Shown in pieces: positions 2,306-33,700 of a DNA stretch of 36,528 bases. This DNA is from a virus. Taxonomy: Duplodnaviria; Caudoviricetes. A model generated the notes under the pieces. It saw only the letters and a program-made list of their open reading frames with translations. It did not search any database and was not told where the DNA came from. The stretch is taken from the IMG/VR virus record IMGVR_UViG_3300032253_000018, positions 1 through 36,528 of that record. One strand, written 5' to 3'. Position 1 is the first letter of the stretch. Each line of letters begins with the position of its first letter. The position numbers and the translations under genes are program-made.

Positions 2306-2866
2306 TTACTTATTACAGTGTAACATCTTTCGCTTCTTTTTGAAAATTTTAGTAAGTCTTTTTAAGTCGTCAGCAGTATATTTTCTTGGTCGTTGGTCAG
2401 CTTCTATTTTATCAACAAGAGCGACACCATACCTAAGCACCATGCCCTTCCTCATTTCTACTGAGTTGCCGCTTAGGTAGCGGTTACATTTAACGCACTG
2501 GCTCGACATGTTTAGAGTGTAAAACCTTAGATGAGGGGCGCTTCCAACTGACCGATAGTGCCCGCAGTCAATTTTCCCGCCATATTCCGTAGAATTATAG
2601 CGAACCCCGCACGAAATACAGTTATTGCCATCACGTTCTCTAATATACGCATTACATGCTGTCTGAGCCTCGTTTAGATGGTCGCTAAGGGTTTTTAATC
2701 TCTCCCTACCCTCTTTTAGCCTTTTACGTGCTTTCTTCTTCTTAGCCTCTTTAGCTACCTCTATTGCACACATTGGGGAGCAAGCAACGGCTAATGAACT
2801 GAAAGGGGTGAATAATTCTTTACAAGTCCGGCATTTCTTCTTTTTTAACGGACTAACCTTCACCAT
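2306..2866 (-). CDS. ninG: NinG/Rap recombination endonuclease
   Basis: KKCRTC..F.P...[45 protein letters not shown]. Confidence 0.92.
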
Positions 2867-3170: not shown

Positions 3171-3523
3171 TAAAACTTTTCTATTAATTGTAAGGCTTGC
3201 TCGGTATCACCTAAAATAAGCTCATCAATTAAATTTCTAACGTCCGTACTTATAGCCATTGATTGTTTGTCGTATTCTTTCCTGTCGAAAGTAGGCTCAA
3301 AAGGTGAGAAATCAAATACATCTATGACATTAGAATAAGAGTATATTTTAGTTACGCCTTTTTTAATTTTAACCTTCCCCTGTCTTAATAGCGTTAGTCT
3401 GCGTTCTCCAGTTAAAGGTTTGCCTTTCGTTAACTTATCTCTTAAAGAGTTTCTTTTGTTGTTCGCCTTGGCGTTAATTCTGGCTTTAGCGTGGTCTATC
3501 TGTATTTTGCTTAGTCTTTTCAT
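3170..3523 (-). CDS. Hypothetical basic protein
   Basis: 117 aa, AAGGGG RBS. Confidence 0.75.
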   Translation of the reverse strand: MKRLSKIQIDHAKARINAKANNKRNSLRDKLTKGKPLTGERRLTLLRQGKVKIKKGVTKIYSYSNVIDVFDFSPFEPTFDRKEYDKQSMAISTDVRNLIDELILGDTEQALQLIEKF

Positions 3524-3663: not shown

Positions 3664-3957
3664 TTATTTCATTTCACCTAGTTTCTTGTACGTTCTCTTA
3701 ATTGAATTATTGTGAACAGGATTGAAGACTTTGACATGAATTCCTGTCGCCTCACTTAAGCTTAAAGCATGATCAGGTATCACAGGAAATATCTGGCCGT
3801 ATAAATAGTTTTCAATAGTTTTAATTGACTTACAGCCTAAAACATCCATAGATAGATATTCCCGAACTTTTTTTTCACTACACTTAAGTTTCTTGGCTCT
3901 TTTCTTAACCCAGATACCTAATTCTAGTTTTAGTAAGGCTTTTCTTGATTCACTCAT
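3664..3957 (-). CDS. Cro-like HTH transcriptional regulator
   Basis: VLGCKSIKTIENYLYGQIFP..DHALSLSEATGI resembles XRE/Cro HTH; no S24 peptidase domain. Confidence 0.65.
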   Translation of the reverse strand: MSESRKALLKLELGIWVKKRAKKLKCSEKKVREYLSMDVLGCKSIKTIENYLYGQIFPVIPDHALSLSEATGIHVKVFNPVHNNSIKRTYKKLGEMK

Positions 3958-3970
3958 AGTTTTCTCTTTT

Positions 3971-4150
3971 TTAAAATTTAACAGATTCGCGTTTAGTTGA
4001 CCAACTTACTTGGTCGCCATCACTCATCGCTAATAATCCAGTTTCACTCTCACGATTAACTTGCTCAATAACATTGCCGAGTAATCCATCAAGAGCATCT
4101 ATACTTAGAGCCTCTACTTTAATTGTTACCGTTACTTTTTCTGCTTTCAT
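3971..4150 (-). CDS. Hypothetical protein (59 aa)
   Basis: Start re-assigned to ATG 4150 with AAGGAG RBS; the track extension runs through structured RNA. Confidence 0.65.
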   Translation of the reverse strand: MKAEKVTVTIKVEALSIDALDGLLGNVIEQVNRESETGLLAMSDGDQVSWSTKRESVKF

Positions 4151-4165
4151 TACCTTTCTCCTTAA

Positions 4166-4238
4166 TGGGTGGGGTAGTGCTGAGGCGGGACTCAGCTTGT
4201 AACCCTGCACTCGGTGATCAACCTAAGTGGACTACCCC
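4166..4238 (-). ncRNA. Putative small structured RNA (module 3): closed three-way junction with ACCCA tail
   Basis: GGGGTAGT/ACTACCCC closing stem; inner hairpins CACTTAGGT-TGATC-ACCGAGTG and GCTGAG-TCCCGC-CTCAGC. Confidence 0.55.
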
Positions 4239-4258
4239 ATAACTCTTTAAATTCAACG

Positions 4259-4414
4259 CAGGAGTGGTTTTCGACACCACTCCCTATCTACTTTTATATA
4301 ACCGCAACCCTGTCAGCCTTAGGGGTGTAGAATATTGCGATCCCATTCTCATAACCTTTTCTCTAGCCGCGTTACTAGAGATAGCTGACCGAGAATTCTT
4401 TGTGGCTTTCACCA
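4259..4414 (-). ncRNA. Putative multi-hairpin/pseudoknot RNA (module 2)
   Basis: TGGT-GAAA-GCCA GNRA hairpin; GTCAGCT/GGCTGAC long-range stem; TCTCTAGT/GCTAGAGA hairpin; 8-bp GGAGTGGT/ACCACTCC hairpin. Confidence 0.5.
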
Positions 4415-4432
4415 TAACTCTTTACTTCTTAA

Positions 4433-4572
4433 TGGTAGGAGAGAGAGGATTTGAACCTCTGTTGCCCTAAGATACCAGCCAGCCTTTGTATACAAAGCTC
4501 TCGGTTGAGTAGGTCAAGTGTCATTAGGGCTTTAACTCCCATCACCGCATTGAGCCGCTCTGCCACTCTCCT
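4433..4572 (-). ncRNA. 140-nt tRNA-like RNA (module 1): acceptor, D and T arms plus encoded CCA, no canonical anticodon arm
   Basis: AGGAGAG/CTCTCCT-A-CCA acceptor; TGGCAGAGCGGCTCAATGC D arm; AGAGG-TTCAAAT-CCTCT T arm; insert closed by GCCCTAA/TTAGGGC. Confidence 0.8.
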
Positions 4573-4594
4573 GTATAACTCTTTAATCACTTAA

Positions 4595-4753
4595 CTATTC
4601 GAGCATCAAGGCTCCGCGACCCAAACCACCATCTTCATTCATCTGTAATTTGCGACTTTCTTTCTTGGCCAAGTTGATTGTCTTAAAACCCTGAACTTCA
4701 CCAGTAGCAATCGTTTTAATATTTTTACCTTTACGAATGTATTTTGTTTTCAT
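4595..4753 (-). CDS. Small basic hypothetical protein (52 aa)
   Basis: MKTKYIRKGKNIKTIATGEVQGFKTINLAKKESRKLQMNEDGGLGRGALMLE; AAGGGG RBS; below the track cutoff. Confidence 0.7.
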   Translation of the reverse strand: MKTKYIRKGKNIKTIATGEVQGFKTINLAKKESRKLQMNEDGGLGRGALMLE

Positions 4754-4776: not shown

Positions 4777-5003
4777 TTACTTAATGCCGTTTACTGCTTT
4801 AATTACGTCAGTTAAATCAAGCTCACTCATATATTGAGCAAACACTGTCTGAGTAACCTCTTCGTCTTCTTCCTGAGAATCTGCATAACCGTAAGCATGT
4901 TCATTATCGCTAGTTTTCTTGCCTGCGCCCTCTACCCACTCACGACGCCGTAATTTTTTTCTATACTAGTCTCTTCAATTGTTATTTTGTATCGTTTCAT
5001 CAT
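4777..5003 (-). pseudogene. 75-aa phage protein interrupted by a single-base frameshift in an A7 run
   Basis: Strong AAAGGGG RBS; frame 0 stops early; one extra A at 4954-4960 gives MMKRYKITIEE...YGY...ELDLTDVIKAVNGIK. Confidence 0.65.
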
Positions 5004-5029: not shown

Positions 5030-5057
5030 ATACTATACGATATAGCAGAGAATGCAA
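5030..5057 (-). promoter_or_regulatory. Leftward early promoter with operator
   Basis: TTGCAT-N16-TAGTAT; operator TACTATA-CGA-TATAGCA at 5031-5047. Confidence 0.65.
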
Positions 5058-5456: not shown

Positions 5457-5491
5457 CCACCTTTTAGATAAGTATACATGAATTAGAGAAT

Positions 5492-5526
5492 AAAAAAAGC
5501 CTCAAGGGTTTAATCAAGAGGCTTTT
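5492..5526. terminator. Possibly bidirectional intrinsic terminator
   Basis: AAAAAAAGCCTC...GAGGCTTTT inverted repeat with A/T tails. Confidence 0.65.
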
Positions 5527-5534
5527 CATACTAG

Positions 5535-5562
5535 TTGCAATGAATTGCGCTTGTGCTAGTAT
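5535..5562 (+). promoter_or_regulatory. Rightward promoter with extended -10
   Basis: TTGCAA-N16-TAGTAT with TGn extension. Confidence 0.55.
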
Positions 5563-5564
5563 GG

Positions 5565-5950
5565 GTTTACTGGTTCAACAAAGAGCCAGTAGATTGTCTA
5601 ATAAAGGTTTAGCGGCCTTAGACAGTGAGTAAAGTATACATTATCTAAATACTTTTTCCACCTCTAAAACCCTAAATCCAAATTAGACCGCTACGAATAG
5701 CTGACGGTTGCGATAATACGTGTGTGAAATAGAATAAAATACATAACGCGCCTTAAGACCAGCGCGACCAAATAGTTAAAACACTCGTTAAAAGTGAGAT
5801 AACCCCAACGGATGGGCAAAGAGGATGGGCATATCCTTGAGACCTTAGAACAGTCAAAGAATGTTGAGTGACAATGAGTTATGTATTTATTGGGCAGTAA
5901 AGGATTGTAGATAGTGAGTATATATAATATCCCTCACAGAACGGTCTTAT
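5565..5950 (+). ncRNA. Putative long structured non-coding RNA or origin region
   Basis: No ORF in the track; nested inverted repeats AGACCG/CGGTCT (5685/5942), AAATACATAAC/GTTATGTATTT (5737/5878), CACTC/GAGTG and several local hairpins. Confidence 0.45.
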
Positions 5951-7143: not shown

Positions 7144-7401
7144 ATGGTAAAGCGATACGAATACAAAGGCCAGATGCTAACCATTAGAGAGTTGGTTCCT
7201 TTTTCAGTGGTTGGTTACGAAACATTAATGCGAAGAATCTCAGTTAATAGTTGGGATGTTGATGATGTAATAAACAAGCCTGTCGATCCAACAAAGCGGC
7301 GAAGCAGTGCGCCTCCATGTAAAAGGGATATCAACAAGAAAAAACCTAAAGCTAAATTTCAGGTATTCGCTCGATGTGTGGGTAGACGTAATTCTAAATA
7401 A
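7144..7401 (+). CDS. Small HTH-like DNA-binding protein
   Basis: YEYKGQMLTIREL....GYETLMRRI...W pattern, like the DNA-binding modules appended to phage HNH enzymes. Confidence 0.6.
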   Translation: MVKRYEYKGQMLTIRELVPFSVVGYETLMRRISVNSWDVDDVINKPVDPTKRRSSAPPCKRDINKKKPKAKFQVFARCVGRRNSK

Positions 7402-7437
7402 CACTAATCTAAATAACACTAATCTAAATAACACTAA
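7393..7437. repeat. Perfect tandem repeat 3 x 15 bp (TCTAAATAACACTAA)
   Basis: Copies at 7393, 7408, 7423. Confidence 0.95.
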
Positions 7438-7943: not shown

Positions 7944-8542
7944 AGGTTTTAATTGGGTGCGAGTATAGTGGAATCGTGAGAGATGCCTTTATTGCTAAAG
8001 GTTGTACTGCCATTAGCTGTGATTTATTGCCGACTGATAAACCCGGCCCACACTACCAAGGCGATATATTCGATATGCTTAACCAGAAATGGGATTTAAT
8101 AATTATGCACCCTCCTTGTACGGCATTAACCGTAGCCGGTAATGCGACATACGGCGAGGGGCAGCCAAAATATCAAGAAAGGCTCGACTCCGTTCAATGG
8201 GTTAAATCTTTATGGGATCAATGTCTTGAAGTATCTGGTAGCATTTGTTTTGAAAATCCAGTTGGTGTACTGCAAAGACTAGGCGGCTTCCATAAGCCGC
8301 AATATATACAGCCATACGAATTTGGGCACAAAGAACAAAAAAAGACGGGGTTATTCCTTTACGGGTTGCCACCACTAATGAAGGTCGCATCTAATAATGT
8401 TTACAAGGAAATGATGCTGCTGCCAAAAAATAAACGAGAGCGACTACATTATTTACCGCCCTCCATAGATAGATGGAAAATACGCTCAACAACATACCAA
8501 GGTATAGCAGATGCAATGGCTAACCAATGGGGCGCATTATGA
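7940..8542 (+). CDS. Phage DNA cytosine-C5 methyltransferase (short type)
   Basis: MKVLIGCEYSG.VRDAF, SCDL, HPPCT catalytic motif, ENPVG; start re-assigned to 7940. Confidence 0.85.
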   Translation: MKVLIGCEYSGIVRDAFIAKGCTAISCDLLPTDKPGPHYQGDIFDMLNQKWDLIIMHPPCTALTVAGNATYGEGQPKYQERLDSVQWVKSLWDQCLEVSGSICFENPVGVLQRLGGFHKPQYIQPYEFGHKEQKKTGLFLYGLPPLMKVASNNVYKEMMLLPKNKRERLHYLPPSIDRWKIRSTTYQGIADAMANQWGAL

Positions 8543-33427: not shown

Positions 33428-33700
33428 TCACCCTACTAACTTCAAGTAAGGCGGGTTACTGCGTACGGCCTCTAGTCGAACCTTAGTTTCGTCTCTCATC
33501 CAATATGAGTGCTTTCCATCATTCCAGCATGGAACTGGTTCCGATGATTTAATCATAACACCGTAAAACCCAATGTAATCAAGCTCTTCTCTTGTGTAAG
33601 TTATATCTTTTAGTGGAATACGAATAAAGCCGAGATTTAATCTACGATGCTCCGTAATCTTGTTAGGGCTGTGTATTGTGTGGGCGTACTCTATTTTCAT
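33428..33700 (-). CDS. Hypothetical protein
   Basis: 90-aa ORF before terS. Confidence 0.6.
   Translation of the reverse strand: MKIEYAHTIHSPNKITEHRRLNLGFIRIPLKDITYTREELDYIGFYGVMIKSSEPVPCWNDGKHSYWMRDETKVRLEAVRSNPPYLKLVG

Follow-up and report, generated by a model that had tools for sequence, protein, structure and literature searches.

A candidate cassette of three small RNAs behind a repeated leader in a P22-type phage genome

The Locus and Its Operon

The stretch of DNA analyzed here (the window, 36,528 bases, 40% GC) is a virus record that is complete and bounded by direct terminal repeats, and its coat, portal, and terminase genes are of the P22 type. By coat and terminase, the closest cultured phages show 30%–46% identity and infect mostly Gammaproteobacteria, so that a host with both RNase E and RNase P is likely. 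On the minus strand, a gap of 444 nt (4151–4594) separates genes for 52-aa and 59-aa proteins, both with homologs, in an operon that runs via a putative Cro-like gene toward ninG and the packaging genes. The original prediction called this operon leftward; it does lie on the minus strand, but it is leftward in the orientation of the window only. The landmarks of the operon are as follows.

5030..5057, minus strand: promoter-like site TTGCAT-16-TAGTAT at the operon head, a candidate that scores under the threshold of the scan tool
4595..4753, minus strand: upstream 52-aa gene (one homolog, 52% identity)
3971..4150, minus strand: downstream 59-aa gene (homologs with 85% identity, on a 37.8-kb contig, and 64% identity)
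3664..3957, minus strand: 97-aa gene, putative Cro-like regulator, with a homolog in the same operon of a relative
2306..2866, minus strand: ninG, the operon marker that served to find the relative

The promoter-like site (5057–5030) is preceded by a terminator-like hairpin (5115–5092), and a similar promoter-like site stands at the head of the matching operon in the relative. A weak terminator-like site (4843–4821) lies upstream of the cassette, three such sites being found with 1.6 +/- 1.4 expected. The 97-aa gene has no Pfam or PHROG match, and its assignment as a Cro-like regulator is our own and putative; a search with the 59-aa gene in viral contigs gave no match. Neither ARAGORN nor Rfam found a canonical tRNA gene in the window genome.

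Several peculiarities of the surrounding region were noted in passing. The first gene of the operon (4777–5002, minus strand) seems to be broken by a frame change near 4955–4965, with no indel in the contigs that cover it, and appears to be either a pseudogene or a case of programmed frameshift. Two noncoding blocks are common to the window and the relative (genome G001), 52 bp at 5686–5737 that are identical and about 90 bp at 5482–5569 that are 89% alike and form a run of strong hairpins; they are possibly an origin or a regulatory RNA. A 15-nt unit occurs in three tandem copies at 7393–7437.

The absence of a credible gene from about 430 nt of the gap, noticed originally, is upheld. Open frames of 38–68 codons do overlap it, and two were searched: the 53-aa frame gave no homolog candidate, and the 43-aa frame gave a single match, in a 1598-aa protein, without a matched stretch. 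A hidden protein gene was rejected. The same stretch is identical wherever covered in contigs from all seven sequencing runs (four of which may be the source of this DNA) and so is not an assembly artefact; no variant was seen in these runs. Its features are as follows.

4575-4585, minus strand: leader copy 1, ending 2 nt before module 1 (A4572)
4433..4572, minus strand: module 1, predicted 140-nt tRNA-framed RNA
4572-4566, minus strand: acceptor 5' strand of module 1
4563-4547, minus strand: D arm of module 1
4545-4531, minus strand: 15-nt remnant of the anticodon arm of module 1, a weak 4-bp hairpin at best
4530-4524/4470-4464, minus strand: closing 7-bp helix of the 67-nt branched arm of module 1
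4460-4444, minus strand: T arm of module 1, preceded by three linker bases
4443-4433, minus strand: acceptor 3' strand of module 1 with ACCA
4422..4435, minus strand: 3' trailer of module 1, starting with CCATTAAG, common to module 3
4414-4424, minus strand: leader copy 2, abutting module 2 at G4413
4250..4413, minus strand: module 2, a segment of about 164 nt predicted to form four hairpins (4413-4404, 4396-4345, 4342-4300, 4284-4260)
4239-4249, minus strand: leader copy 3, abutting module 3 at G4238
4166..4238, minus strand: module 3, 73 nt, predicted three-way junction
4155..4168, minus strand: 3' trailer of module 3, entering the purine-rich ribosome-binding region of the 59-aa gene

The Repeated Leader

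The original prediction rested on a motif that recurs at the head of each module, and an exact-match scan of all 36,528 bases confirms it: the 11-mer TAAAGAGTTAT has three exact copies on the minus strand, at 4575, 4414, and 4239 (spacing 161 and 175), and no other, and these lie 2, 0, and 0 nt from the 5' edges of the three modules. When 4160–4590 was shuffled with dinucleotides preserved, an 11-mer was present three times in one of 5000 shuffles, the longest triple word usually being 5–6 nt. Copy 1 is predicted to be about half paired (mean unpaired 0.47). A –10 box was rejected as an explanation of the motif, the hexamers from its three copies being unlike.

The end of the leader resembles a processing site. 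At modules 2 and 3 and at the RNA of the relative described below, three of the four leaders compared, it closes with A(–2)U(–1) before G(+1), which is the optimal site of E. coli RNase P according to PMC10731613; the context at module 1, C(–1)/A(+1), differs from this optimum. Compared with the RNase E core of PMC5222698 (RN↓WUU, U at +2), the leader of the window agrees at four of five letters and that of the relative at five of five, although this core is common in AT-rich sequence. This combination of an RNase P-optimal end with an RNase E core leads us to regard the gap as a precursor that RNase E would open and RNase P would trim, and the repeated 11-mer likely is the cut-and-entry leader of each unit.

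Module 1: A tRNA Frame with an Enlarged Middle

Module 1 has the frame of a class II tRNA, that is, a 7-bp acceptor stem, a D arm with G18G19, a T arm, and NCCA, the ACCA following directly after the closing stem as originally described. The Rfam tRNA model (RF00005) matches it at 34.9 bits against a cut-off of 29, covering acceptor, D arm, and T arm and skipping a 72-nt middle; ARAGORN called no tRNA in it, and the output of that program at a lowered threshold was noise and was discarded. The first 27 nt resemble tRNA-Ser genes called by ARAGORN in the fetched loci, but module 1 departs from a Ser-like class II tRNA in A1-U72, A73, the 67-nt side arm, and the lack of an anticodon stem-loop. 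Pair probabilities are 0.77–0.87 for the acceptor, 0.86–1.0 for the T stem, 0.9–1.0 for the side-arm helix, and 0.01 for the D stem. Since the folding energy is not significant (z –1.14; 26 of 200 shuffles fold as well), the support for module 1 comes from its tRNA frame.

No anticodon arm of the canonical kind, with a 5-bp stem and a 7-nt loop, is found in module 1. A decoding tRNA with a UAA anticodon in the extended arm, or an intron-bearing or decayed tRNA gene, could be considered, as forcing the fold into a U-UAA-A loop costs 2.9 kcal/mol and archaeal-type tRNAs with introns fit the same search pattern. We regard this as most improbable: the UAA arm has a pair probability of 0.0 and competes with the perfect 7-bp helix, U33 is missing from the canonical register, and the frame is fully paired, which argues against a decayed tRNA gene. 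The stunted anticodon arm and the branched side arm of the predicted fold suggest instead that module 1 cannot decode, and we infer a non-decoding tRNA frame that carries a cargo.

The exact module 1 pattern twice gave no match in viral contigs, the middle of module 1 found no homolog in blastn and pattern searches of phages, plasmids, viral contigs, and metagenomes, and blastn with module 1 in cultured phages and plasmids returned matches of the T arm only.

Modules 2 and 3 and the Trailers

Modules 2 and 3, in contrast to the flanking coding stretches (z –0.26 and +1.27), fold better than their 200 shuffles: module 2 has z –2.61, with no shuffle as good, and module 3 has z –2.63, with two as good. 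Module 2 has unpaired ends, no CCA, and no tRNA frame, and despite the leader at its head it offers RNase P just a 3-bp stem; its last hairpin (4284–4260) consists of an 8-bp stem and a GUCGAAA loop. In module 3, an 8-bp closing stem is followed by a hairpin, an 11-nt single strand, a 6-bp hairpin adjoining the closing stem, and ACCCA directly after that stem, again as was first reported. A scan of the genome for at least seven Watson–Crick pairs spanning 55–170 nt and followed by ACC found five sites, two of which are modules 1 and 3. The trailers of these two modules are 86% alike over 14 nt, and the 8-mer CCATTAAG occurs on the minus strand at 4435 and 4168 only.

Rfam gave no match to module 2 at E<=10 and none to module 3, and neither module found a homolog by blastn in cultured phages or in plasmids. 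Further searches yielded nothing of use. Among 401 sampled genomes of one bacterial class, DNA matches were 0 of 400 scored and protein matches 0 of 401, in a search run without a positive control and hence uninformative. A metagenome pattern gave four loci, three being tRNA-Ser duplications and one carrying the sequence of the window itself, and a pair of motifs 140–170 nt apart gave 70 loci, of which not one resembled the window by blastn or had a T arm near the match.

A Related Phage with a Different RNA behind a Similar Leader

A relative of 37.6 kb (G001, locus L178) has a terminase 60%, an endolysin 85%, and one injection protein 79% identical to those of the window. It was found via ninG, nine loci coming from a ninG search and six from an alignment search. 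Among these 15 loci an enlarged frame with CCA occurs only in L178 and L184, which are one contig, the same that also carries the Cro-like gene; the frame scanner missed a true tRNA in L176, so that its sensitivity is incomplete.

The RNA of the relative (L178:3033–3165) is 133 nt long, tRNA-framed, and ends in ACCA. It lies between the Cro-like gene and ninG, that is, downstream of the former, whereas the cassette of the window lies upstream of it. It is the sole T-arm element of its genome, the window likewise having one. Its acceptor (G3.U70, A73) differs from that of module 1, its D-like hairpin is short, and its branched arm, closed by a 9-bp helix that adjoins the T arm, is unlike the middle of module 1. 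Modules 2 and 3 are absent from the relative, the gap having no blastn match in G001.

Directly 5' of the first base of this RNA stands TAACGATTTAT, which agrees with TAAAGAGTTAT in nine of 11 positions. Sites with at most two mismatches to the motif number 22 in the 2 x 37,622 positions of the relative, or 2.9e-4 per position, and by our own arithmetic the chance of the match is about 1 in 850 for four allowed offsets. At the leader position of unrelated enlarged tRNA frames, 14 of 14 show 5–8 mismatches. As judged from sequence comparison, this leader is the main independent support for the motif as a 5'-end signal, although it is one case and was noticed post hoc. When window and relative were combined into one search pattern, the viral collection yielded only the relative, a match by construction.

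Eight cultured P22-like phages have no exact copy of the motif; six lack a T-arm element, one has a normal tRNA-Gly, and one has an element after ninG. Unannotated RNAs with a T arm or T loop were also seen downstream of ninG in Pseudomonas phage AH02 (L192, about 33500–33605) and before a tRNA-Arg in another ninG locus (L185, about 8020–8130).

The repeats could alternatively have been left behind by short duplications or by microhomology-driven insertion, with module 1 a real tRNA-framed RNA, only the last few bases of the leader of importance, and module 2 a leftover or unrelated. Leader copies 2 and 3 are 83% alike over 23 nt, 12 of which lie inside the modules, and this suggests, at the level of sequence, that duplication, which needs no selection to produce such likeness, supplied at least one leader copy; the 14-nt trailer common to modules 1 and 3, the single leader copy of the relative, and the lack of homologs of modules 2 and 3 in the searches point the same way. 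Nevertheless, the leader of the relative keeps its register although the RNA behind it has another acceptor, another middle, and another position in the operon, and the folds of modules 2 and 3 surpass those of their shuffles. A relic seems unlikely to us.

Comparison with Known Phage RNAs

The closest parallels of the proposed precursor are the stable RNAs of the large phages. In T5 (GenBank AY543070), RNA1, RNAI, and RNAIII, stable RNAs of unknown function, are annotated end to end before tRNA-His, and RNA1, RNAI, RNAIII, RNA2, and RNA3 form a tandem mix of tRNA-framed and unframed RNAs like the cassette. RNA1 (144 nt) folds with a D arm, an enlarged middle, and a T arm, and module 1 shares with it the tRNA frame whose enlarged middle lacks an anticodon loop; RNA3 (73 nt), with a closing stem, two hairpins, and ACCA, follows the same plan as module 3. 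The T5 RNAs lie among 20-odd true tRNA genes in a phage of 122 kb, whereas the cassette occupies a 36.5-kb phage with no canonical tRNA and hence no tRNA cluster. No module reached z 2.5 against any of seven T5 RNAs, and homology beyond the frame was not found.

In T4 (NC_000866), the species 1 and 2 RNAs rnaC and rnaD sit in the tRNA cluster. The 139-nt rnaC combines a T arm and a closing stem with two long hairpins but, unlike module 1, has no D arm; it was detected by Northern blot and is "of yet unknown functions" in PMC9697503. Module 2 as a homolog of rnaD was rejected, the z of only 3.0 being the best of 40 comparisons, and is not counted as homology. A hairpin with a GUCGNWA loop was observed in rnaD (5 bp; L168:860), as in module 2 (4284–4260, 8 bp), in the relative's L178 RNA (3 bp), and beside a look-alike (L072:1417, 6 bp); the background with at least 5 bp is two in 334 kb, for a pattern chosen post hoc. 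By plan, the cassette would be of a known kind, that of the T5 and T4 RNAs, but sequence comparison does not support membership by descent.

The leaders of T5 are just AU-rich and not identical, in contrast to the exact 11 nt of the window, and this may point to a dedicated sequence-specific RNA-binding protein or nuclease, of phage or host, that releases or protects the units. Eleven exact bases are more than RNase P, which reads six leader bases according to PMC5602109, or RNase E, with five, would need, and the motif heads the unframed module 2 as well. Such a factor is quite unlikely in our estimate, given that PHROGs (33 proteins) and Pfam (10 proteins) revealed no nuclease or RNA-binding family besides DNA nucleases, and that the leader copy of the relative has two changes. 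A processing leader read by RNase E and RNase P is preferred, although this reading does not explain the exactness of the eleven bases or the leader on module 2.

Control of the operon in cis has also to be weighed, either by an antisense RNA of the C4/CI type (module 3) with repeated targets or by antitermination sites. P4 CI is a small stem-closed phage RNA released by RNase P. P1 C4, which PMC10731613 describes as a stem-closed phage RNA without a T loop that is cut by RNase P, resembles module 3 in size and shape, and the cassette precedes the putative Cro-like gene. In Rfam, the tRNA model matches module 1, but the C4, c4-like, and isrK models find nothing in the cassette, and no complementary targets were found: apart from one internal palindrome, the longest exact minus-strand complement is 11 nt and lies outside the operon, and the only exact 10-nt complement of the motif in the operon, at 3442, is inside a coding gene. 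The core of the motif is the reverse complement of the boxA consensus. Antitermination by boxA was rejected, as boxA would sit on the non-transcribed strand, and we consider cis control very unlikely.

Other classes were compared with the cassette. Allo-tRNA-like polycistrons are likewise arrays of irregular tRNA-like units, but in PMC5389517 they have 8/4 or 9/3 acceptor branches and anticodons, whereas module 1 is 7/5 and has no anticodon loop. Hammerhead and HDV-like ribozymes were rejected for the cassette; a relaxed theta/HDV-like descriptor (P3-L3-P3' core, then P1') gave no candidate in 4100–4620, and Rfam gave no match. Y RNAs of the YrlA type have a permuted order, with the T arm before the D arm; module 1 has D before T, no such RNA was matched in Rfam, and the 33 window proteins scanned with PHROGs include no Ro60/Rsr. 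A tmRNA has the alanine acceptor G3.U70 and a tag reading frame, and the RNA of the relative also has G3.U70 and A73; module 1 has G3-C70, and ARAGORN found no tmRNA in the window or in G001.

The literature search, mostly without subscription and older papers such as the original T4 and T5 work, found no report of phage tRNA-framed RNAs in a cassette punctuated by a leader, and the 10,006 candidate viral RNAs of PMC10690425 could include the modules. PMC3014915, PMC4810235, PMC13191261, and PMC13434031 contributed nothing about this class. The kind itself is already annotated in T5 and T4; what is new here is the exact common leader and a cassette in a genome that has no canonical tRNA gene.

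Proposed Mechanism

We propose that the gap probably is a polycistronic precursor, cut by host RNase E and RNase P into three stable non-decoding small RNAs. The operon transcript would run through the gap. RNase E would cleave each leader in its U-rich half, RNase P would act at the stems of modules 1 and 3, and trimming on the 3' side would leave CCA. The unframed module 2 would be freed by the cuts on both sides, in parallel to T5 RNAI and RNAIII, which lie end to end between RNA1 and a tRNA. These four steps taken together we hold to be somewhat more likely than not. The array with a shared signal, as originally proposed, is in our opinion the best reading, and the leader recurs before the different tRNA-framed RNA of the relative; it is tempered by the T5 and T4 precedents of the kind, by the conjectural role of the leader, by the likeness of copies 2 and 3 that reaches 12 nt into the modules, as after a duplication, and by module 2, which has neither homolog nor frame. 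The role in anti-defence or host takeover that was suggested originally is not supported by these results.

A fifth step is distinctly more tentative. The tRNA frame could be the handle by which an exchangeable folded cargo is processed and kept stable; the cargo in turn would act in trans on a host protein to which it binds, most plausibly a tRNA-handling one. The space spent in a 36.5-kb genome and the different RNA behind a like leader in the relative argue for a use beyond tRNA supply. The anticodon is dispensable for seryl-, leucyl-, and alanyl-tRNA synthetases, so that charging of module 1 or of the RNA of the relative is possible. Having no anticodon loop, these RNAs would be poor decoys for anticodon nucleases, although enzymes directed against the 3' ends of tRNAs could be attracted by their CCA. 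A bolder version, which we think improbable, is that leader and trailer form a lineage-specific slot system of small P22-like phages, in which unrelated RNAs are inserted between the fixed 11-nt leader and the CCA-led trailer and released by a dedicated sequence-reading factor, their anticodon-less CCA-ending products being decoys for defence enzymes of the host whose target is the tRNA 3' end. Were it true, the cassette would be a modular RNA counter-defence array and would suggest a function for the 50-year-old stable RNAs of T4 and T5.

Annotations still assign no function to the stable tRNA-like RNAs of T4 and T5. The present cassette stands alone in a 444-nt gap of a small phage that has no true tRNA genes, with a single repeated leader, so that the whole unit can be cloned and its elements mutated; it thus offers a compact test bed for how such RNAs are released and what they bind.

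Enlarged tRNA Frames in Other Genomes

A more general pattern (D arm, 72–102 nt, T arm) was searched for the class as a whole. It occurs at 11 viral loci, three of them tandem tRNAs and eight single frames (seven distinct) with paired acceptors and unrelated middles, and at 81 bacterial and archaeal loci, which comprise 22 tandem, duplicated, or gapped cases and 59 single frames, including archaeal tRNAs that carry intron-like inserts and a small number of tRNAs whose variable arms are very long. Conservation of the D arm among these matches is circular, because its sequence is part of the pattern.

Some of the look-alikes deserve mention in their own right. A tRNA-framed family of Streptomyces and Nocardia (27 of the 81 loci: L088, L090, L095, and 24 others) has extended anticodon and variable arms and differing neighbor genes, with no Rfam match in the four loci scanned. 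In L105, L131, L141, and L161 (about 1490–1615), bacterial tRNA genes combine a normal anticodon arm with a variable arm some 45–57 nt long. Finally, the first 3.1 kb of a 175-kb viral contig (L080:1–3130) have no ORF of at least 90 aa and, as judged by eye, hold several tRNA-framed RNAs with enlarged middles and also about five units with a similar short hairpin and CCA at their end, like repeated RNase P handles.
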